From contig QPGO01000100.1 in NCBI GenBank assembly GCA_008632985.1, positions 114,388-178,387 on the forward strand: DNA of 64,000 nucleotides. Reading direction: 5' to 3'. Made by a program: the position numbers and the translations under genes. The notes under the pieces were generated by a model. It searched no databases, was not told where the DNA came from, and saw only the letters and a program-made list of their open reading frames with translations. Source of the DNA: Psammoneis japonica (taxonomy: Eukaryota). This document shows, in pieces, positions 15,716-60,310 of the stretch (position 1 is the stretch's first letter; every line of letters starts with the position of its first letter).

Positions 15716-15926
15716 TTTGCTTCTTCCTTCGATAGTGTTTACAGTACGTTATAAGCTGCAGCCATTGACAACACTACATAGAGACAACAGTGAACATGTG
15801 TCTGTAACGCGCCGCTCTTGTGGTACTTCTCGTTTCGTTTCTCTCGCCCGCGCAAAATTTTGGAATTTAGCACGATCTATTGTCTATTTGACGTCTTCAC
15901 GCCCGTATGTATGCCAGTATTTCATA

Positions 15927-18021
15927 ATACTACGAATTCGGAAACAATTGCGCGTTTTCCAGCGCGAAGGTCGAATATCGCGCCTGAACCGACGATCGGC
16001 GCTTCGCGCAAAACTCATGTAGAAATACGTAGAAAACATACTAGAGCTAGAACTCCAGAACGGAGAAAATCATCTGAATGGTGCGCGTATCATCACAATG
16101 ATGTTGTTGCGTCCCTTCGTGAGCGTTTCTTACTACCATGCCACCCACAAAGAGACGAAAGCATTGTGTTCCTGCTCAAGCACCTGGAGATACAGTGACT
16201 CATCCGTCTAGTGGTGGCACTAGAGGCTATTCCCAGGCTCAACTTTTTTCCGGAGAGGTTTCTGGAGATGACGCCCGCGCCGACCCATACTCGGCCTTGT
16301 TTGAGCTATTCTTGATCGTTTTTGTTCATTGAAGACATGTCTTTTACTTTTAGGAGGTATAATTGATAGGTGAGACCCTTGGTTTGGTGAGAAACGGAGT
16401 AGTCGTTGTGTAGAAATCAAAAAATGGGTCTTTTCCATTTTTGGGCGGCAAAACCCATACTTTGATGTTATTTCGTTCAATACACCTCCTCTGTTGCCTC
16501 CCATTGCTGTTATCTCTTTATTATAGATACGAAAAGTATCCCCTGTCTTGAGTATGCTGTGTGTATGATCTGTGGCGAGAAATATTGCTCACATTCGTGT
16601 GGTCTCGCATCGGCATTTTGAGACTACCACCGACCCATACTTTGATGTTTATTCGTTCATTTGGTCTCTTTACTCTCACTTCTTTGATCGAATCTTTACT
16701 TTATAGTTCTGGTAGCATCATTCTGCCTTGGAAGCACAATAAATCCAACAAGAAATGCCAAGCAGAGGTTACAGTATGGTTGACGCGTCCACAGACGGAA
16801 AAGCACTGATGTCGCACCGACAAATGCTGACGAAGATAATCGAATTCCTATCGACAATATCGAAGTCGGAAGTACTGGCAACACATCAAACGATTCATCC
16901 TGTGATTCCTCCACTCATGATTTTCTAGTGAACGCGCTGACATTGTAAAACATGAGGATTCGAGTCAGCACTCGACTCTCGGATACACGAACAGCCGAGG
17001 AGCATCATGCTACCAATGAAAATGGGGGAATACTAGCTTCAGATAATAGAAGAATTTGTTAGGTGTCACCATTCTATTTTATGATTCTATTAGCAGTAGT
17101 ATCCAACAGACTAGACTAACGGGAAAAGCGCATTCTCTGCAAGCGAGGAGAAGGCGTCGGCACATGTCGCAGTTGGTTTTATCGATGAATACTTCTTGCC
17201 ACAGCTCGCGCCCACAGCAAATTCAAGACAGAAGGATGCTACCACAACTATAAAGTAAAGATTCGATCAAAGAAGTGAGAGTAAAGAGACCAAATGAACG
17301 AATAAACATTAAAGTATGGGTCGGTGGTAGTCTCAAAATGCCGATGCGAGACCACACGAATGTGAGCAATATTTCTCGCCACAGATCATACACACAGCAT
17401 ACCCAAGACAGGGGATACTTTTCGTATCTGTGATAAAGAGATAACAGCAATGGGAGGCAACAGAGGAGGTGTATTGAACGAAATAACATCAAAGCATGGG
17501 TCGTGACCATTCCTGATTATCCGGTCAATCCAGTCAATGTGACAGTGCAATGTTTCTCACCACAGATCGAATACACAGCATGACCAAGACAGTGAGTACC
17601 TTTCATATCTATAATAGAGAGACACCAGCAATCGCAGGCAACAGAGGAGGTGTTTTTAACGAATAAAGATCAAAGCATGGGTTTTGCCGCTCAAAATTGG
17701 AAAACACCCATTTTTTGATTTCAACACAACGACAACTCCATTTTTCGCCAAACCAAGGGGCTTACCTAACAATCAGACCTCCTAAAAGTAATATCCATGT
17801 CTTCAATGAACGAAAACGATCAAGAACAGCTCAAACAAGGCCGAGTCTGGATCGGCGCTGCGCTATGTAAAAAAAAATCCACGCTCCAGGAAAAAGTCTC
17901 TCTCTAGTATGTTTTCTACGCATTTCTACACAAATCTTGCGCGAAGCTCCGATCGTTGCTTCGGGATGAAAATTTGAGCTTCGCGCACGAAAACGCGCAA
18001 TTGTTTCCGAATTCGTAGTAT
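15927..18021. mobile_element. Non-autonomous foldback-like element with ~0.8-kb imperfect inverted repeats
   Basis: 15927-16730 is largely the reverse complement of 17224-18021 (ends atactacgaattcggaaacaattgcgcg / cgcgcaattgtttccgaattcgtagtat). Spacer 16731-17223. No TSD identified. Confidence 0.8.
17321..17681. repeat. Two diverged ~180-bp tandem units in the right arm
   Basis: Both units end in gcaacagaggaggtgt...tcaaagcatggg; the left arm has one unit. Confidence 0.8.
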
Positions 18022-18200
18022 CTGAAATGTCTTGAAGCCGGTTCGTACATCCACCATGGCGGGCGGACCTTGGTTCCATCAAATCAACTTTGCAGTCATG
18101 TTTGAAAGCGTACGGTAGACCTGCTGGTGCAGTTTTATTGTCACAACTACTTTGGCAAAATTCCTGGCTAATAGAGTGGTTTCTCTTGTGCAAAAACTGT

Positions 18201-48520: not shown

Positions 48521-48751
48521 CCGGGCGGGTTCGTCGGTCATCGTACATTTTGAATTTGTCCTTTTTGTGTCATACTGGCATCATGTAGAATCTACAGAAT
48601 CGATCATTCTCCGGGTTCGTTGAGCTCACAACTTTTGAACTTGAACACGTCATCCATCATCGCTCTCGTTTTGAGCATCACCCAGGCATCACCATGAGAA
48701 ATCAGAAGACTACTGTACTACTCTTATCATGCATGAAATAACAGCAGCAAC

Positions 48752-49966
48752 ATGACGACATCTGATACATTGCTCCTGTTCTCTCTTCTGGTTGCATTTT
48801 TCCAGTCTTCAGCTTTTACTATTCCAACAAACAATAGACAGGCAAATTCCCATCGATCGTCGGCATTGAACGCCGAGAAACGACCGGTAGTTGTTGTGGG
48901 GAGAGTGGATCATGTTGGCGGTGAACCACTTCAAGTGGTTGGGAGCGCATCGGCAGCCATGGTGGGAGCCGCTTTGGCCTTGAGCGCACGTGACTTGTTA
49001 AAGGGCGATTTGAGACTTCCTACGCAAGAGACGCCACCTCCAGCTCAACCAATAACAATGCTAACATCGATTGATCAGAACGCACCTGCTGCAATTGAAG
49101 ATTCGCTGTATGAATACTTGGAAGAGACTTTGTGGGATTCTCCTGCTCTCCTTGTTCGACGAACACAAAACAAGGAATATCCTGTAATTGCCGATTATGA
49201 AAGCTGTCTCAATCAACGATTCGATAATCAGGCCTGGAACAACCGACCAATTTTACATGTTGTCATGGAAGGAGGAACTGCTGCTGAAGCCCTATTAGAT
49301 CAACAGCTTCGGGATGATGTTTTCTTTTTGGGTATAGAGCCAGTTGTCCCCTTTGAGAATAACGGGGTCGTTTCACCAGAAATGGCGCAACAATGTGGCT
49401 CGATATTGCAGCGCATCCTTGACTTTTACCAGACGGACCAGGAGGCCGCAGCCGTATCCTTGGATTCACCCTTACTTCTCAGCATGTTGCAAGCAAATTG
49501 TTTGCCAAAGTCGTCGACAAACAGGGACTCTTTTGCGGTGCATCCGAGTGGCTCACAGAGAGGGGAGAGTTCTACCGGCCTCCTCGTCGAGTATTTGTAC
49601 GACTATGATAATGCCTTTGGAGGAACGGACCCCCTGTCGTGTCCAACCAACGAGTTTAGTATTCCGGTGCCCTATGAACCATCAAGCAAGAATACTCCCA
49701 GGATGTTGTCAAAGGCGGGAAGCAATGCCGCCGCTGCTGCGTATACAGTTTTGCGAGGTCATGGAATGGAGTCTGTCTTGTCCATGTGTATTGCAGCAAG
49801 TATTGAAGCGTTATTTTGGGAGATGCAGCAACATTCCTCTTTTGAATGTCCTCCTTATACATGGAGTAGCATTGAGAGAGTTGCTACTCTCAGTGAGCAA
49901 GTGCGAGATTACGTACGGGAAGAACAAGTAGTACGGCAAAGGTACATTGAATTCGGCTATAAATAA
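48752..49966 (+). CDS. Hypothetical protein with bipartite plastid-type presequence
   Basis: 404-aa ORF; signal peptide ending SSA-FTIP (ASAFAP-like). Confidence 0.75.
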   Translation: MTTSDTLLLFSLLVAFFQSSAFTIPTNNRQANSHRSSALNAEKRPVVVVGRVDHVGGEPLQVVGSASAAMVGAALALSARDLLKGDLRLPTQETPPPAQPITMLTSIDQNAPAAIEDSLYEYLEETLWDSPALLVRRTQNKEYPVIADYESCLNQRFDNQAWNNRPILHVVMEGGTAAEALLDQQLRDDVFFLGIEPVVPFENNGVVSPEMAQQCGSILQRILDFYQTDQEAAAVSLDSPLLLSMLQANCLPKSSTNRDSFAVHPSGSQRGESSTGLLVEYLYDYDNAFGGTDPLSCPTNEFSIPVPYEPSSKNTPRMLSKAGSNAAAAAYTVLRGHGMESVLSMCIAASIEALFWEMQQHSSFECPPYTWSSIERVATLSEQVRDYVREEQVVRQRYIEFGYK

Positions 49967-50142: not shown

Positions 50143-51126
50143 TCAAACCGACACTTGCGTCGACAAATAGTTGGCCAACTCTTGGTGCCCAGTTGGATTG
50201 GGATGCCAAGCGTCAGTGATTGAACTTGTCTCAAATTCCCACATCCAGCCATCGGGATTCTGAACAAAAAGTTTCGGGTCGATCTCGTGTCCAGCAAAGA
50301 GGCTCATTGTGTCCACAGACTGAAAGGTCGGACCATTAGGGATCGCGTTGGCAGTGGCGACAGCTCGTTCAAAGGTCGCCTTCTGCTCGTCTGCAAAGGT
50401 ACGGTATTCCTTGCGCATATTGATGGCAATGAAAAAGCCAAACAACCAGTCGTTTTTGTCTAGCACAAGGTGCGGGTAGTTGACCATGGCCACTGTGGCT
50501 TGGCTGGACAATTTCGTCGCAAGCTCAGAGAACATGGCATCAAGTTGGTCCTCAACAGCGGGTAAGGTGGCAGTGGCTTCCGCTAGCTCCTTTCTGCAAT
50601 TGCGTGCATTTCGTGTGATGAGGCAGGCTCTGGTCATCTCGGGAAACCCAGCATCATTGCCGCCAACCGAAATGAGCACCAGGTCGGTGGACGCGTCGAC
50701 AGCCTCGATCTGTTTCTTCAAGTACCGAGTGCACAACAAGCCTTCTTTCTCAAACTCTTCATCTTGGTTTTCCGGAGGACAAGAACCAAGAAATGTGTTC
50801 TTCTCTCTGCGATTGGTGATGTCCTCGACTCGTCCATTGTAACAAGCTCGATTGACAAAAGAGTCAGCAGCAGCAAGCGAGTCGGCATGCTGGCTAGCCC
50901 AACCAGTAGGGCTCCGAGCACAGCCACTCGGCCCATCGTAATTTTCCTTTCCAAACTCGTCGCGCGCTCCGGTTCCAGAGGCAAATGAATCGCCAAGTGC
51001 CACCACATTGAGGGCGACCGAGACATGAGGACACAAGAACAACATCGGCATTAACAGTCCCACAGACAGCGATGCGGCTTTCACTGCTTTGATTGCTGAT
51101 GAGACGGTGTTCATAGAGTCTGACAT
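50143..51126 (-). CDS. Secreted SGNH/GDSL hydrolase (SEST-like), copy A
   Basis: ALGDSFASG, NRACYNG, SVGGNDAGF, DAWHPNPTGH; signal peptide. Confidence 0.9.
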   Translation of the reverse strand: MSDSMNTVSSAIKAVKAASLSVGLLMPMLFLCPHVSVALNVVALGDSFASGTGARDEFGKENYDGPSGCARSPTGWASQHADSLAAADSFVNRACYNGRVEDITNRREKNTFLGSCPPENQDEEFEKEGLLCTRYLKKQIEAVDASTDLVLISVGGNDAGFPEMTRACLITRNARNCRKELAEATATLPAVEDQLDAMFSELATKLSSQATVAMVNYPHLVLDKNDWLFGFFIAINMRKEYRTFADEQKATFERAVATANAIPNGPTFQSVDTMSLFAGHEIDPKLFVQNPDGWMWEFETSSITDAWHPNPTGHQELANYLSTQVSV

Positions 51127-51329
51127 GTTGTCAACCGAACAATCTGTGTTTATGTGGCACAATGGGTGCCAATCAATGCAACAAAAGTGGGTTCGATGAA
51201 GCAGCCTCCACCCATGCGGTGATTTATTCCAAAACGTGACGTTGCGTTCCTCACAGTCCGTTGCTTGCGCTTGTTTTTTAGTTTTACTTGCTCGGGTGTG
51301 CACCGTTTAGGCCCTGTAGGATGACGTGG

Positions 51330-54315
51330 CAAGATGTCAAGTTTGTGTGCATTCAGTGTCGCACTTTTCTCCACGCAAAAAGCATGGGTTGACCATGGGA
51401 TTCCCGACGAAGAAGAGCATTCTGTTGGGCTATCTAATTTGCTTCTTATCTTACTTTTCTACATCAGAAGGCATTGGATCAATGAAGCTGACCAACATGG
51501 GGATTTGCAACCTGGTTTTTTCTGCTTTTGGAAAAGTGTCCAGCACCTCTTGCTGACGGGACATGTCATTGCAAAATCAAGGAAGCACAACCCAATCTAG
51601 AGAGTCTTGGGTTCAAGCCTTGGGCAGAAAAGATGAGAGCAATCTTGACAACTTTGACTCAAATCAGAGTGGCAGCAGAGGCGCTGCACATCAAAATCAA
51701 GTCCACACTGCACGGCCAGTTGACTGACATGGGGAAATGGAGGACAGTGTTCCCAAAAGAAGACACGTTGTTGTGCACTGTGTTGCTGATCCATCCCAGC
51801 AGGTTGAGAAACCACTCAAAGAGGCAGGTTCTTTTCAAAGGCTTCTGAAAGTTTTTGGGGTGTGGCTGCACTCACATGACAAACGTCATCGGCGCGAATT
51901 GAGAGGAGAGACATGCAGAGCTGGGGGCTGAAATGCAGGTGGAGCCCCCATGCACTCAGCTGTTTAATCTTCAGAGAGCTGCTGCTGCAAGAAATGAAGG
52001 CAATCCACAATCTGGCAAAACTTGTTGGGGCAGTCCAGAGGCCAAAAAACTGTTTCCTGGTGATTCCAGAGAAGTGAGGAAAATGTGGCGGCAGCTCTGG
52101 AGTGATGCACATCATCAACAGACCACAACAAGTTGGCAAGAAGACACATGAAAGACAGACCAAGGTCATCAATCAATGTGGCAGGGACCAAATCTCTGCA
52201 GCCCTCATGATGCGAACCTTGTGTCACAAAGAAATCTTGCTTTGGGTGGCATTGGCCCAGGCAACAGGCACGCAAGGATGTTGGCAGGAGAGAGGAGGGA
52301 GCTTTGGCAGGCAGAGAAGGAAGGGCAGGAGTCAGAAAAGTTGGAGAGGACAGTCCAAGGTGGCTTTGGGCATGGAAAAAAGCCAAAGAAGAAAGAATGG
52401 AAATGATGGCCAGTGGTCAAAGGGGCAAAGTGTTGGCAAAGGCCATTGAGAGAGGCCAAGGGTTTCAACAATGGCACGGGTGGGATTGTGGGTGTGTGGT
52501 TGGAGAGGGAGCCATTGTGCATTTTGGGGCACACAGAGGCATGGTCATTGAAGGGGTCAAAGGAAGAGTGCAGCTGCAAGGGCAGGGCAAGTGCCAGAGG
52601 TCTGGAGGGTGGCAAGGTGACAGAGCTTGTGAAGGAAAAGAAAGGCAATTTGGAGGGGGAAAAGGCAGCTGCATGGGTGGAAGGAGTGGAGACAGAGCAG
52701 GCTGGCAAGCTGGGGAAAGAGCAGAAGGGGGGTTTTGAAGTTGGGGTGTTGAAGGATGAAAAGGAGAGCAGTCTGATGTGGGGTGTTGCACAGGTGGGCA
52801 CATTGGGCAAGGCCTCAGAGGTGCATTGTGTGGCCAGAAAGAGCAGTGGGAAGCAAGGAGTCAAAGATGGGAGAGCAAAAGAGCCAAAAGACAACATGGA
52901 GGCAGAGGCAAGAGCGGGAGTCAGACAAAGAGGCAAGATGAGCAGAGTGGCTGGGTGGCAAAGAGAAGAGTTGGTCACAAGTGGGGGACACCTCCATGTT
53001 TGGCAAATCAGGAGCAGGGCGGCCAGGAAAGGGAGATGACAAGAAGGAGGAGGGAGGCAACAGCAATGGCTGAGACATCAGCCAAAGCAGCTGATGCCAC
53101 ACCAAGGGAAGCAGAAGGGAGAAGGGCAACAAAAAGAGCTGCAGCAGGGAAGGGGTGGGGTGGGGGGTCACTGTGAGGTGGGAGAGGAAGTGGAGAGAGT
53201 GTGCCCAATGACAGAATCAGCAAAGGGAGAGGCCCTGTGAAAGAGGTTTTGGGTGGGTGTCGGGGGACAGGAGGTTGCAGCAGGCACCAGCAGCAGAAAA
53301 AAAGCAACAGATGCTGGGCCAGAGGGGGTGGAGCAATTGCAGGAGAGTGTGCTTTGGGTTTGCAGGCACCAAGGGCAGCAGAGGTCTTGGGCAAAGAGGT
53401 GGAGGAGGCAGCCTTGGACAAAAGAAAGTTCATGGAAGCAAGTTGCTGACCAAGAATGTGGGCACCAACAGCAAATTCAAGATGTGTGTCAACAGTTGTT
53501 GACAAGACAAGGCATTCTTGGAGAAGGTGGCATCATCATCTGGAGAGAGGGAGTGAGGGGAGTCAGAGATGGAAGCGAAGAGATTTTTGTTTTAAAAAAA
53601 ATTGAGGACAATGCCAAGGGGAGGGCCTGGGTGGGTCAGATGCTCAAGGAACCAAGGCATGACAAAGTGGGGCAGAAAGGCATGGTGTGTTTGTGCACTG
53701 AAGCAATCCAGAGATTGCTGTTTTGTTGAGCTGTTGACCCAGCCCGCAAAGAGGCAGGCCTCAAATGAATCAAAACACTTTGTGAAAAAATGTGAGTGTG
53801 GAGCTTCAATCTTCTTGAGCCACAATGCTCCCCACTCTCCAGGAGCTTTTTGTTGTGTTGCTTGGCATGAAAAATGTGCTTGTTGAGCAACAAACATGGG
53901 CACACATGATTCATGAGAGACGGCGCCACTCAACCGCTCGCAAAACAACGAGTGAGCTCCCCACCAGAATTGCCGCAAGCAAACAAGCTTTTGATTTTGC
54001 CAGCTTTTGCAGCATTGATTCACAATTGTTTTTGGGACAAACACAGAATGTGCATGATCATTGAGATGCCACTCTGCTGGCAAGCAGAAGCTCCCCAGCT
54101 GCTGTGAGCAAGCAACCTTTTGCTTTGGCCAGCTTTGCAATGTTGATCTGCAGCTGTTTCTGTGCCTCCCACTGGGAGAAGACGTTTCTCAACACCAGCA
54201 CCAGCAGCACAGTTTCACCTGGGTGTGCCATGGCCATTGGCAAGAGGGGTTTTTTTTGGGGGAAAAGACTGACGATGACACAACATGCAGTCCCAGCTGT
54301 TGGAGATGGGACTTC
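51330..54315. other. TpA/CpG-depleted spacer X1
   Basis: Converted composition with a purine-rich middle; family not recognised. Confidence 0.9.
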
Positions 54316-54560
54316 AATGCCGCTGCTGCTGCCGCGCACACAGTTTTGCGCGATCATGGAATGGAGTCTGTCTTGTCCATGTGCATTGCTGCAAGTGTTG
54401 AAGCATCATTTTAGGAGATGCAGCAACATTCCTCTTTTGAATGTCCGCCCCATAAATGGAGTAGCATTGAAAGAGTTGCTGCTCTCAGTGAGCAAGTTCG
54501 AGATTACGCACGGGAAGAACAAGTGGTGCGACAAAGGTGCATTGAATTAATTCGGCTGTG
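54316..54560 (+). pseudogene. 3' fragment of the 48752-49966 gene, TA-converted
   Basis: Aligns to 49724-49960 with Y>H/C changes and a TAG stop. Confidence 0.9.
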
Positions 54561-54726: not shown

Positions 54727-55715
54727 TCAAACAGACAACTGCGTCGACAAATAGTTTGCCAGCTCTCGGTGCCCTGTCGGGTTGGGATGCAAAGCGTTGG
54801 TGATTGGGCTTGTCTCAAATTCCCAGATCCAGCGATCGGGATTCTTAACAAATGGTTTCGGGTCAGTCTCGTGTCCAGCAAAGAGGCTCATTGTGTCCAC
54901 AAACTGAAAGGTGGGACCATTGGGGATCGCATTGGCAGTGGCGACAGCTCGTTCAAAGGTCGCCTTCTGCTTGTCTGCAAAGGTGCGGCATTCCTTGCGC
55001 ACATTGATGGCAATGAAAAAGCCAAACAACCAGTCGTTTTTGTCTGGCACAAGGTGCGGGTGGTTGACCATGGCCACTGTGGCTTGGCTGGACAATTTCG
55101 TCGCAAGCTCAGAGAACATGGCATCAAGTTGGTCCTCAACAGCGGGTAAGGTGGCAGTGGCTTCCGCTAGCTCCTTTCTGCAATTGCGTGCATTTCGTGT
55201 AATGAGGCAGGCTCTGGTCATCTCGGGAAACCCAGCATCATTGCCGCCAACCGAAATGAGCACCAGGTCGGTGGACGCATCGACAGCCTCGATCTGTTTC
55301 TTCAAGCACCGAGTGCACAACAAGCCTTCTTTCTCAAACTCTTCATCTTGGTTTTCCGGAGGACAAGAACCAAGAAATGTGTTCTTCTCTCTGCGATTGG
55401 TGATGTCCTCGACTCGTCCATTGCAACAAGCTCGATTGACAAAAGAGTCAGCAGCAGCAAGCGAGTCGGCATGCTGGCTAGCCCAACCAGTGCCGCAGGG
55501 CTCCGAGCACAGCCACTCGGCCCATCGTAATTTTCCTTTCCAAACTCGTCGCGCGCTCCGGTTCCAGAGGCAAATGAATCGCCAAGTGCCACCACATTGA
55601 GGGCGACCGAGACATGAGGACACAAGAACAACATCGGCATTAACAGTCCCACAGACAGCGATGCGGCTTTCACTGCTTTGATTGCTGATGAGACGGTGTT
55701 CATAGAGTCTGACAT
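54727..55715 (-). pseudogene. SGNH hydrolase copy B (chimera of A and C, frameshifted, TA-converted)
   Basis: 5-bp insertion within 55491-55497; CYNG>CCNG, RYL>RCL, NYP>NHP, EYR>ECR relative to copy A. Confidence 0.92.
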
Positions 55716-55929
55716 GTTGTCAACCGAACAATCTGTGTTTGTGTGGCACAATGGGTGCCAATCAACATGACAAAAGCAGGTTCGATGAAGCAGCCTCCAC
55801 CCATGCGGTGATTTATTCCAAAACGTGACGTTGCGTTCCTCACAGTCCGTTGCTTGCCTGCACGCTTGTTTTTTTGTTTTTCAGTTTTACTTGCTCGGGT
55901 GTGCACCGTTTAGGCCCTGTAGGATGACG

Positions 55930-58909
55930 TGGCAAGATGTCAAGTTTGTGTGCATTCAGTGTCGCACTTTTCTCCACGCAAAAAGCATGGGTTGACCATG
56001 GGATTCCCGACGAAGAAGAGCATTCTGTTGGGCCATCTAATTTGCTTCTTGTCTTACTTTTCTACATCAGAAGGCATTGGATCAATGAAGCTGACCAACG
56101 TGGGGATTTGCAACCTGGTTTTTTCTGCTTTTGATGAAGTGTCCAGGGCCTCTTGCTGATGGGACATGTCATTGCAAAATCAAGGAAGCACAACCCAATC
56201 TAGAGAGTCTTGGGTTCAAGCCTTGGGCAGAAAAGATGAGAGCAATCTTGACAACTTTGACTCAAATCAGAGTGGCAGCAGAGGCGCTGCACATCAAAAT
56301 CAAGTCCACACTGCACGGCCAGTTGACTGACATGGGGAAATGGAGGACAGTGTTCCCAAAAGAAGACACGTTGTTGTGCACTGTGTTGCTGATCCATCCC
56401 AGCAGGTTGAGAAACCACTCAAAGAGGCAGGTTCTTTTCAAAGGCTTCTGAAAGTTTTTGGGGTGTGGCTGCACTCACATTGCAAACGTCGTCGGCGCGA
56501 GTTGAGAGGAGAGATGCAGAGCTGGGGGCTGAAATGCAGGTGGAGCCCCCATGCACTCAGCTGTTTAATCTTCAGAGAGCTGCTGCTGCAAGAAATGAAG
56601 GCAATCCACAATCTGGCAAAACTTGTTGGGGCAGTCCAGAGGCCAAAAAACTGTTTCCTGGTGATTCCAGAGAAGTGAGGAAAATGTGGCGGCAGCTCTG
56701 GAGTGATGCACATCATCAACAGACCACAACAAGTTGGCAAGAAGACACATGAAAGACAGACCAAGGTCATCAATCAATGTGGCAGGGACCAAATCTCTGC
56801 AGCCCTCATGATGCGAACCTTGTGTCACAAAGAAATCTTGCTTTGGGCGGCATTGGCCCAGGCAACAGGCACGCAAGGATGTTGGCAGGAGAGAGGAGGG
56901 AGCTTTGGCAGGCAGAGAAGGAAGGGCAGGAGTCAGAAAAGTTGGAGAGGACAGTCCAAGGTGGCTTTGGGCATGGAAAAAAGCCAAAGAAGAAAGAATG
57001 GAAATGATGGCCAGTGGTCAAAGGGGCAAAGTGTTGGCAAAGGCCATTGAGGGAGGCCAAGGGTTTCAACAATGGCACGGGTGGGATTGTGGGTGTGTGG
57101 CTGGAGAGGGAGCCATTGTGCATTTTGGGGCACACAGAGGCGTGGTCATTGAAGGGGTCAAAGGAAGAGTGCAGCTGCAAGGGCAGGGCAAGTGCCAGAG
57201 GTCTGGAGGGTGGCAAGGGTGACAGAGCTTGTGAAGGAAAAGAAAGGCAATTTGGAGGGGGAAAAGGCAGCTGCATGGGTGGAAGGAGTGGAGACAGAGC
57301 AGGCTGGCAAGCTGGGGAAAGAGCAGAAGGGGGGTTTTGAAGTTGGGATGTTGAAGGATGAAAAGGAGAGCAGTCTGATGTGGGGTGTTGCACAGGTGGG
57401 CACATTGGGCAAGGCCTCAGAGGTGCACTGTGTGGCCAGAAAGAGCAGTGGGAAGCAAGGAGTCAAAGATGGGAGAGCAAAAGAGCCAAAAGACAACATG
57501 GAGGCAGAGGCAAGAGTGGGAGTCAGACAAAGAGGCAAGATGAGCAGAGTGGCTGGGTGGCAAAGAGAAGAGTTGGTCACAAGTGGGGGACACCTCCATG
57601 TTTGGCAAATCAGGAGCAGGGCGGCCAGGAAAGGGAGATGACAAGAAGGAGGAGGGAGGCAACAGCAATGGCTGAGACATCAGCCAAAGCAGCTGGTGCC
57701 ACACCAAGGGAAGCAGAAGGGAGAAGGGCAACAAAAAGAGCTGCAGCAGGGAAGGGGTGGGGTGGGGGGTCATTGTGAGGTGGGAGAGGAAGTGGAGAGA
57801 GTGTGCCCAATGACAGAATCAGCAAAGGGAGAGGCCCTGTGAAAGAGGTTTTGGGTGGGTGTCGGGGGACAGGAGGTTGCAGCAGGCACCAGCAGCAGAA
57901 AGAAAGCAACAGATGCTGGGCCAGAGGGGGTGGAGCAATTGCAGGAGAGTGTGCTTTGGGTTTGCAGGCACCAAGGGCAGCAGATGGGCAAAGAGGTGGA
58001 GGAGGCAGCCTTGGACAAAAGGAAGTTCATGGAAGCAAGTTGCTGACCAAGAATGTGGGTGCCAACAGCAAACCCAAGATGTGTGTCAACAGTTGTTGAC
58101 AAGACAAGGCATTCTTGGAGAAGGTGGCATCATCATCTGGAGAGAGGGAGTGAGGGGAGTCAGAGATGGAAGTGAAGAGATTTTTGTTTTAAAAAAATTT
58201 GAGGACAATGCCAAGGGGAGGGCCTGGGTGGGTCAGATGCTCAAGGAACCAAGGCATGACAAAGTGGGGCAGAAAGGCATGGTGTGTTTGTGCACTGAAG
58301 CAATCCAGAGATTGCTGTTTTGTTGAGCTGTTGACCCAGCCCGCAAAGAGGCAGGCCTCAAATGAATCAAAACACTTTGTGAAAAAATGTGAGTGTGGAG
58401 CTTCAATCTTCTTGAGCCACAATGCTCCCCACTCTCCAGGAGCTTTTTGTTGTGTTGCTTGGCATGAAAAATGTGCTTGTTGAGCAACAAACATGGGCGC
58501 ACATGATTCATGAGAGACGGCACCACTCAACCGCTCGCAAAACAACGAGCGAGCTCCCCACCAGAATTGCCGCAAGCAAACAAGCTTTTGATTTTGCCAG
58601 CTTTTGCAGCATTGATTCACAATTGTTTTTGGGACAAACACAGAATGTGCATGATCATTGAGATGCCACTCTGCTGGCAAGCAGAAGCTCCCCAGCTGCT
58701 GTGAGCAAGCAACCTTTTGCTTTGGCCAGCTTTGCAATGTTGATCTGCAGCTGTTTCTGTGCCTCCCACTGGGAGAAGACGTTTCTCAACACCAGCACCA
58801 GCAGCACAGTTTCACCTGGGTGTGCCATGGCCATTGGCAAGAGGGTTTTTTTTGGGGAAAAGACTGACGACGACACAACATGCAGTCCCAGCTGTTGGAG
58901 ATGGGACTT
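55930..58909. other. TpA/CpG-depleted spacer X2 (duplicate of X1)
   Basis: Near-identical to 51330-54315. Confidence 0.92.
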
Positions 58910-59165
58910 CAATGCCGCTGCTGCTGCCGCGCACACAGTTTTGCGCGGTCATGGAATGGAGTCTGTCTTGTCCATGTGTATTGCTGCAAGTGTTGAAGCG
59001 TTATTTTGGGAGATGCAGCAACATTCCTCTTTTGAATGTCCGCCCTATAAATGGAGTAGCATTGAAAGAGTTGCTACTCTCAGTGAACAAGTGCGAGATT
59101 ACGTAGGGCCCTACGGGAAGAACAAGTAGTACGACAAAGGTACATTGAATTAATTCGGCTATATT
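58910..59165 (+). pseudogene. 3' fragment of the 48752-49966 gene
   Basis: Aligns to 49724-49960; 8-bp insertion within 59104-59113. Confidence 0.9.
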
Positions 59166-59329: not shown

Positions 59330-60310
59330 TCAAACAGACAACTGCGTCGACAAATAGTTTGCCAGCTCTCGGTGCCCAGTCGGGTTGGGATGCAAAGCGT
59401 CGGTAATTGGGCTTGTCTCAAATTCCCAGATCCAGCGATCGGGATTCTTAACAAATGGTTTCGGGTCAGTCTCGTGTCCAGCAAAGAGGCTCATTGTGTC
59501 CACGAACTGAAAGGTGGGACCATTGGGGATCGCATTGGCAGTGGCGACGGCTCGTTCAAAGGCCGCCTTCTGCTCGTCTTCAAAGGCGCGGTATTCCTTG
59601 GGCATGTTGATGCCAATAAAAAAGCCAAACAACCAGTAGTTTTTGTCTTGCACTTGGTGCGGGTAGTGGACCATGGCCACTCTGGCTTGGCTGGACAGTC
59701 TCGTCGCAAGCTCAGAAAACATGGCATCAAGTTGGTCCTCGACAGCGGGTAAGGTGGCGGTGGCTTCCACTAGCTCATTTCTACATTTGTGCGCATTCCG
59801 TGTAATGAGGCAGGCGGTGGATATCTCGACAAACCCGGCATCAATGCCGCCAACCGAAATGAGCACCAAGTCGGTAGACGCGTCAACAGCCTCAATCTGT
59901 TTCTTCAAGTACCGAGTGCAGAACAGGTCTTCTTTCTCAAACTCTTCATCTTGATTGTCAGGAGGACAAGAACCAAGAAACTTGTTCTTCGCTCTGCGAT
60001 TGGTAATGTCCTTGACTCGTCCATTGGAACAAGCTCGATTGACAAAAGAGTCAGCAGCAAGCGATTCGGCATACTGGCTAGCCCAACCAGTAGGGCTCCT
60101 AGAACAGCCACTCGGCCCATCGTAATTTTCCTTGCCAAACTCGTCGCGCGCTCCGGTTCCAGAGGCAAATGAATCGCCAAGTACCACCACATTGAGAGCT
60201 TCCGAGACTTGAACACAGAATAACAATAACAGCAGCATCAATAGCCCCACAGACAGCGATGCGGCTTTCATAGTTTTGATTGGCGAGACTGTGAACATAG
60301 AGTCTGACAT
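59330..60310 (-). CDS. Secreted SGNH/GDSL hydrolase, copy C
   Basis: Intact ORF; GDSFASG and DALHPNPTGH; block III reads GGID rather than GGND. Confidence 0.88.
   Translation of the reverse strand: MSDSMFTVSPIKTMKAASLSVGLLMLLLLLFCVQVSEALNVVVLGDSFASGTGARDEFGKENYDGPSGCSRSPTGWASQYAESLAADSFVNRACSNGRVKDITNRRAKNKFLGSCPPDNQDEEFEKEDLFCTRYLKKQIEAVDASTDLVLISVGGIDAGFVEISTACLITRNAHKCRNELVEATATLPAVEDQLDAMFSELATRLSSQARVAMVHYPHQVQDKNYWLFGFFIGINMPKEYRAFEDEQKAAFERAVATANAIPNGPTFQFVDTMSLFAGHETDPKPFVKNPDRWIWEFETSPITDALHPNPTGHRELANYLSTQLSV

Follow-up and report, generated by a model that had tools for sequence, protein, structure and literature searches.

Several kinds of TA-targeting DNA element are known to leave short scars. 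A canonical Tc1/mariner excision footprint consists of two TAs around three terminal bases of the element, 7 bp in all (10.1101/659086; PMC7827188). Sleeping Beauty leaves TACAGTA or TACTGTA (10.1101/659086; PMC7827188; PMC7913693) and requires one flanking TA for its excision (10.1101/659086), and the footprints of the ZB element hold 0-3 bases (PMC7913693). Past losses of Stowaway-type MITEs were deduced from 1-4-bp terminal remnants between TAs (PMC1925063), and the Passer pogo elements of oomycetes duplicate TA and carry the ends CCGTA, CCGTC or CCGTG (PMC7386202, supplementary file 3). A regionally confined TpA>TpG/CpA hypermutation has been described in Bigelowiella natans (Mettrop et al., 10.64898/2026.01.13.699255). 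Both the footprints of TA-targeting MITEs (PMC1925063) and TpA hypermutation in Bigelowiella are thus already known. Here, we analysed a stretch of 64,000 nucleotides from Psammoneis japonica (hereafter the window), in which one of three gene copies carries a short insertion at a TA.

The insertion in copy B and the chimeric origin of this copy

The window has the layout A-X-B-X'-C, in which A, B and C are copies of one gene and X and X' are spacers (Table 1), and only these three copies were found by genome search. The gene of copy A scored above the cut-off for the Pfam families Lipase_GDSL (PF00657) and Lipase_GDSL_2 (PF13472), and the nearest solved chains are 4hyq, a phospholipase A1, and 5mal, a lipase. 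Spacer X had no match among the fetched loci (labelled L below), and both spacers are strongly purine-skewed on the + strand. At their starts, B (54315-54560) and C (58910-59160) repeat the 3' end of an upstream ORF (48737-49966), which has no Pfam match.

Table 1. Features of the window, with positions counted from its first letter.
Feature	Position	Strand	Basis
Copy A, GDSL/SGNH hydrolase gene with an open frame; 327 aa when read from the chosen Met (assumed start)	50143..51126	-	Pfam
Copy B, version of this gene with a frameshift near codon 73 and a stop at 55302-55304; numerous TA>TG/CA changes	54727..55715	-	alignment, translation
Copy C, open paralogue, protein 83% identical to A	59330..60310	-	translation, alignment
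TG-CCG-CA in copy B, putative excision footprint TA-CCG-TA with both TAs converted, net +5	55491..55497	+	sequence, alignment
Empty TA site, copy A	50907..50908	+	sequence, alignment
Empty TA site, copy C	60091..60092	+	sequence, alignment
Crossover interval in B, C-like on the left to A-like on the right	54932..54945	.	informative columns
Spacer X, almost without TA and CG	51300..54314	.	sequence comparison
Spacer X', matching X at about 99% identity and likewise almost without TA and CG	55903..58909	.	sequence comparison
Second TA-anchored insertion TA-GGGCCC-TA (+8), private to C	59104..59113	+	alignment

Read directly, positions 55487-55500 are ccagTGCCGCAggg in copy B, and A and C both read ccagTAggg at the matching site. 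Copy B therefore has TGCCGCA where the other two have TA, as a preliminary description of the window had noticed, and both the sequence and a three-way alignment, which placed the 5-base gap in A and C unambiguously between T and A, bear this out. Because both A and C have the empty site, the insertion belongs to B. The frameshift claimed in the same description was likewise confirmed, with a stop after 137 codons in B versus 327 in A. The insertion and the empty TA are thus established directly.

An ancestral TA at the insertion site, as found here in A and C, is the position at which a footprint of an ITm (Tc1/mariner/pogo) element is expected; the flanks of the remnant in B now read TG and CA, and equal a duplicated TA only if they were converted. 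A random non-templated 5-nt insertion would both land on a TA and read YR-CCG/CGG-YR with a chance of about 2e-4, or 1.5e-3 when any of the seven end pairs seen in this genome is accepted. Both are rough figures for this indel alone, others having been inspected as well, and assume the pattern YR-NNN-YR and the 41 TAs among the 1479 steps of A. Compared with the footprints of Sleeping Beauty, the likeness would lie in a TA duplicated, if both flanks were converted, around three terminal bases, and, as in Tc1/mariner footprints generally, lies in a net gain of 5 and a frameshift in coding sequence. The middle, however, is CCG rather than CAG, the two putative TAs now read TG and CA, and the scar is deduced from paralogues rather than from an observed excision.

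Copy B follows C at 81 of the 85 informative columns left of 54932 and follows A at 88 of 97 right of 54945, which suggests that B arose when C and A recombined by unequal crossover. At three sites A and the right half of B differ in that one has TG and the other CA, so the ancestral TA was converted separately in each. Moreover, a contig of run X1 differs from the right half of B by the same counts as A does (8 letters and 14 gap letters). Together, these data imply that the right half of B split from the line of A some time ago, and this half may come from another allele, which may already have carried the insertion. The insertion postdates this split but need not postdate the crossover. With B as a C/A chimera, the order proposed in the preliminary description, duplication before insertion, is therefore neither demonstrated nor fixed.

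A CCG-ended MITE family among other TA-targeting elements

A scan for YR-CCG pairs in 719 kb of fetched, partly overlapping DNA gave four candidates, three of them internal to longer arms and one a MITE of about 500 bp (L119:155-658), which reads TA-CCGGAGG…CCTCCGG-TA and has 35-bp arms that are 91% alike. The terminal 18-mer of this MITE had 28 genomic matches, versus 0 for a control. Fourteen complete copies of 458-857 bp, two of which represent one site in a duplicated segment, are 96-100% identical, and their 28 flanks are TA in 25 cases, TG in 2 and CA in 1. A DNA search with the MITE returned at least 102 matches, at least 31 of which cover at least 330 of its 504 bases at 68-100% identity. 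Among 17 diverged copies that were fetched, about 7-8 of them with one end not recoverable, several fall into a second subfamily starting TA-CCGACGG. TA-flanked elements with CCG…CGG termini, which the preliminary description had called for, thus exist in this genome, in two subfamilies; this family is observed directly and is, from its sequences, young. In the right flank of L146 (G000:C27 near 247192), a young CCGG MITE is apparently inserted in the terminal repeat of a member of the CCGAC subfamily.

The genuine target duplications of this family have themselves been converted, as is directly seen in seven copies in which both flanks changed and CCG or CGG was kept (L157, L170, L174, L180, L181, L182 and L184). 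The flanks of L182 are TG on the left and CA on the right, and TG-CCG and CGG-CA flanks are present on older copies. At 23 insertion sites, counted without L147 (the same site as L136) and without L171-173, L175, L178, L179, L185 and L186 (end not recoverable), the base beside the TA is G or C in 33 of 46 cases against a background of 0.51 (p=0.003), a preference that conversion itself may raise; the site in copy B is G-TA-G. No MITE copy lies inside the window. The CCG of the remnant coincides with the end sequence of a TA-targeting element found in this genome, but since about 14 of the 64 trinucleotides match some TA-flanked end here, the CCG match alone carries a modest likelihood ratio.

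Like Passer, these MITEs start with CCG, duplicate TA and reside in a stramenopile (PMC7386202), and their TIRs of less than 40 bp (the 35-bp arms), CCG start and TA flanks are those by which Passer/pogo elements are recognized, with a difference in the fourth base. They end in CCGG or CCGA and carry no transposase, and a DD35D partner for them was not found. In searches that are lower bounds, neither an autonomous partner nor a long element with the MITE ends was recovered, the PF03221 (HTH_Tnp_Tc5) profile gave no match, and the DDE_1 matches belong to elements ending GGG or CCC; the PF01359 profile gave no match and no signal anywhere. The TA-flanked elements that Pfam searches uncovered end in GGG, CCC, CAG, CTG, CTA and GGC, and less surely in TTA and TTG, and a pogo-like relic (L103) starts TA-CCG at one end only. 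Two candidate CCG ends were discarded: in the TATTATGCC family the CCG is flank rather than terminus, its 14-mer giving one unrelated match, and the motif TACCGTAWWT had 288 matches versus 557 for a control and was an element end at none of 30 loci.

Other repeats were encountered in these searches. L057:4297-7640, an intact-looking pogo-like element with TA-CCCTG ends, has two ORFs, of which the second closes with an HPD motif. An abundant element of about 390 bp with GAC…GTC ends (L004:2438-2831, L013:2358-2749) shows an apparent 4-bp A/T-rich target duplication, which is converted in L004. Several DDE_3 families of 3.6-4.5 kb (L039-L052) have arms starting TATTAT or TATTGC, in which the TA is target or terminus. 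Positions 15919-18046 of the window hold nested long inverted repeats (278 nt at 97%, 312 nt at 86% and 125 nt at 84%) in unconverted DNA, and their outer arm is similar to the TA-CTACGAATTC terminus of an element in L116.

TA conversion in copy B

Copy B lies between two converted spacers and is itself heavily converted, as its alignment to the parental copies directly reveals: 23 of 40 parental TAs (58%) were turned to TG or CA, comprising 15 of 25 lost relative to C in the left part and 8 of 15 lost relative to A in the right part. The direction is strongly one-sided, with 15 changes versus 1 reverse on the left and 9 versus 1 on the right. Among dinucleotides common to A and C, 14 of 24 TAs changed in B, compared with 3 of 54 CGs and 3 of 183 CA/TGs, so that the transitions are confined to TpA and lead to TpG or CpA. 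By these counts, the spectrum in B matches that reported for Bigelowiella natans, with which it shares regional TpA>TpG/CpA transitions. In the available part of that report, hypermutation was seen de novo on integrated viral DNA (10.64898/2026.01.13.699255), whereas here its traces lie on a duplicated host gene, on MITEs and on target duplications, and older domains are also CG-depleted. Separate conversion is seen too in a 9-kb segment that occurs twice at 98% identity (L136 and L147; G000:C142 end and C49 near 411-424 kb) and has 60 CA/TG columns; the MITE in this segment carries a 355-bp nested insert.

With 23 of its 40 TAs converted, two conversions inside a scar in B are to be expected, and with only 3 of 54 shared CGs changed, so is an intact CG within it. 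At 790 converted sites from repeat copies, C followed the changed A in 321, and GTAG became CA 116 times and TG 46 times; GTAG thus goes mostly to CA, which fits the second TA of the scar. Inside B, however, both GTAG conversions (2 of 2) went to TG and none to CA, and conversion of TAs is less frequent in the neighbourhood of the scar (3 of 9 from 55100 to 55750).

Proposed origin of the insertion and its alternatives

We propose, with a probability of roughly 0.7, that the insertion in B goes back to a 3-nt footprint of Tc1/mariner-type excision, TA-CCG-TA, and that each of its TAs was then converted. In this model, an IS630-Tc1-mariner-type element with CCG…CGG ends, most likely a MITE of about 500 bp, would have inserted at the TA, duplicating it, in the lineage that gave the right half of B. 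Staggered-cut excision and end-joining would then have left TA, three terminal bases and TA: given the canonical form, a CCG…CGG element would leave TACCGTA or TACGGTA, and two conversions of the former by the TpA>TpG/CpA process, giving TG at the first TA and CA at the second, would produce TGCCGCA. Unequal crossover of C and A would have formed B and hence the layout of the window, and the scar would have inactivated a redundant gene copy. That insertion preceded conversion is an assumption within the model, and excision would have come before at least one conversion only if the transposase, like that of Sleeping Beauty, needs one flanking TA.

The preliminary description had suggested the same footprint, and this proposal held in part: the heavy TA conversion of B and the converted target duplications with intact CCG speak for it, but an imperfect local duplication reconstructs the identical 7-mer. 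The alleles that it had proposed to look for, a filled site or an unconverted TACCGTA, were found neither in the genome assembly, which has three copies only, nor in the contigs of runs X1-X3, a thin sampling of one sample, nor in metagenome contigs (0 matches). For this MITE, no footprint form was directly observed. Across the genome, TACCGTA occurs 7467 times and TACGCTA 1774 times, and in 198 kb TACCGTA occurs 18 times against 4.5 expected, but in 93 unconverted kb, with TA clustering removed, the excess of TA-CCG-TA was non-significant (14 versus 9.1, p=0.076). The hoped-for haplotype pairs amounted to only about 9 kb of alignment, and a second TACCGTA candidate (L085 versus L114) was rejected, the two sequences being non-homologous.

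Further anchored indels were seen among repeat copies. The second TA-anchored insertion of the window is confined to copy C, with a single TA step at the same place in A and B, and could be a both-ends footprint of a GGG…CCC element such as L053. In tandem copies of L125 (2152-2159 versus 2663-2664), CA-CCGG-CA stands against CA, with the direction unpolarised, and this is possibly a converted 4-nt footprint of the same CCG MITE. A further case, L055, carries CTA and is ambiguous. Altogether, the 3-12-base indels between repeat copies numbered 70: 39 tandem duplications, 22 unclassified events and 9 YR-anchored events, the last including B and some counted twice.

These counts bear on an origin without any transposon, in which slippage or templated end-joining copied ACCAGT minus one base and the TAs were converted later. 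We consider such an imperfect duplication unlikely, although several points speak for it: a single gap separates the reconstructed insert from the upstream 6-mer (ACCAGT ACC-GT AGGG), the commonest short indel here is a tandem duplication, perfect or with one substitution, and a YR…YR pattern arises from any TA-containing duplication. Nevertheless, it needs a second event or error-prone copying, no duplication-with-indel lacking a YR anchor occurred among the 70 events, and the match to the young CCG-ended family would be a coincidence; for footprints, in turn, we estimate that a few per cent would look like their flank by chance. A by-product of the TA mutator itself, whereby repair of deaminated A at TpA breaks the DNA and adds a few templated or random bases, has a low probability in our assessment. 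It would account for two TA-anchored insertions at one locus (55491 and 59104) and for the YR anchor of 9 of the 31 non-duplication events (some counted twice), and an inverted copy of TGCCG lies 20 bases upstream of the insertion (55467) as a possible template, but a nearby 5-mer template is expected by chance. The +8 insertion, moreover, is in C, which is hardly converted, and the comparison of C142 with C49, with its many conversions, shows 11 indels, of which almost every one is a single base and not one sits at a TA; for the hypermutable regions of Bigelowiella, the available part of the report describes substitutions and no indel excess (10.64898/2026.01.13.699255).

We regard it as very improbable that the assembly is at fault, whether through two haplotypes wrongly joined to give B or through a consensus error at the 5 bases. 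A mis-join at A/C homology would yield the same chimeric layout, and other contigs differ by 1-base homopolymer indels resembling long-read errors. The independent contigs at this locus, which come from X1 and X2, have A and C letters only, no B-specific letter, and lack the 5 bases (1 of 1 covering contig each), so the read support that the preliminary description had asked for was not obtained. The share of B words in X1, 0.60, matches the 0.591 (692 of 1171) of B's 31-mers that are also present in A or C, indicating that copy B was not seen in X1. However, contigs demonstrate presence and never absence, and X1 may be another isolate; a different isolate is the likely reason for B's absence from the run contigs. 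Besides, both halves of B were converted in the same direction, as expected of one physical unit, and a 5-base non-homopolymer insertion that fits YR-CCG-YR would be an unusual type of error.

As with Stowaway-type footprints, the proposed loss of a TA-targeting MITE in copy B is read from a terminal remnant, but in that study a single site was sampled in its filled as well as its empty form (PMC1925063), whereas no filled allele was found here. In a literature search of partial coverage, we found no report of such scars in diatoms or of scars rewritten by TpA hypermutation. Two results are added here, a CCG-ended family that matches the scar and the origin of B as a chimera. The scar alone, being of an ordinary type, is of little weight, yet it would record the order of two events, and one base-resolved site joins a TA-erasing process, the loss of one copy of a host gene and a young family of CCG-ended MITEs. 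It also names a concrete element with which TA-anchored micro-indels elsewhere in the genome can be compared. Tentatively, if the transposase of the MITE, like that of Sleeping Beauty, needs at least one intact flanking TA, at least one of the two conversions would have followed excision, so that the mutator would go on acting on a region rather than on the element, and conversion of both target duplications would lock Tc1/mariner-type elements in place and erase their landing sites. If so, conversion would be a defence directed at the ends of an element in addition to its gene, L157, L170 and L180-L182, in which both flanks are converted, would no longer be able to move, and scars such as that of B would provide a genome-wide clock for the TA mutator.
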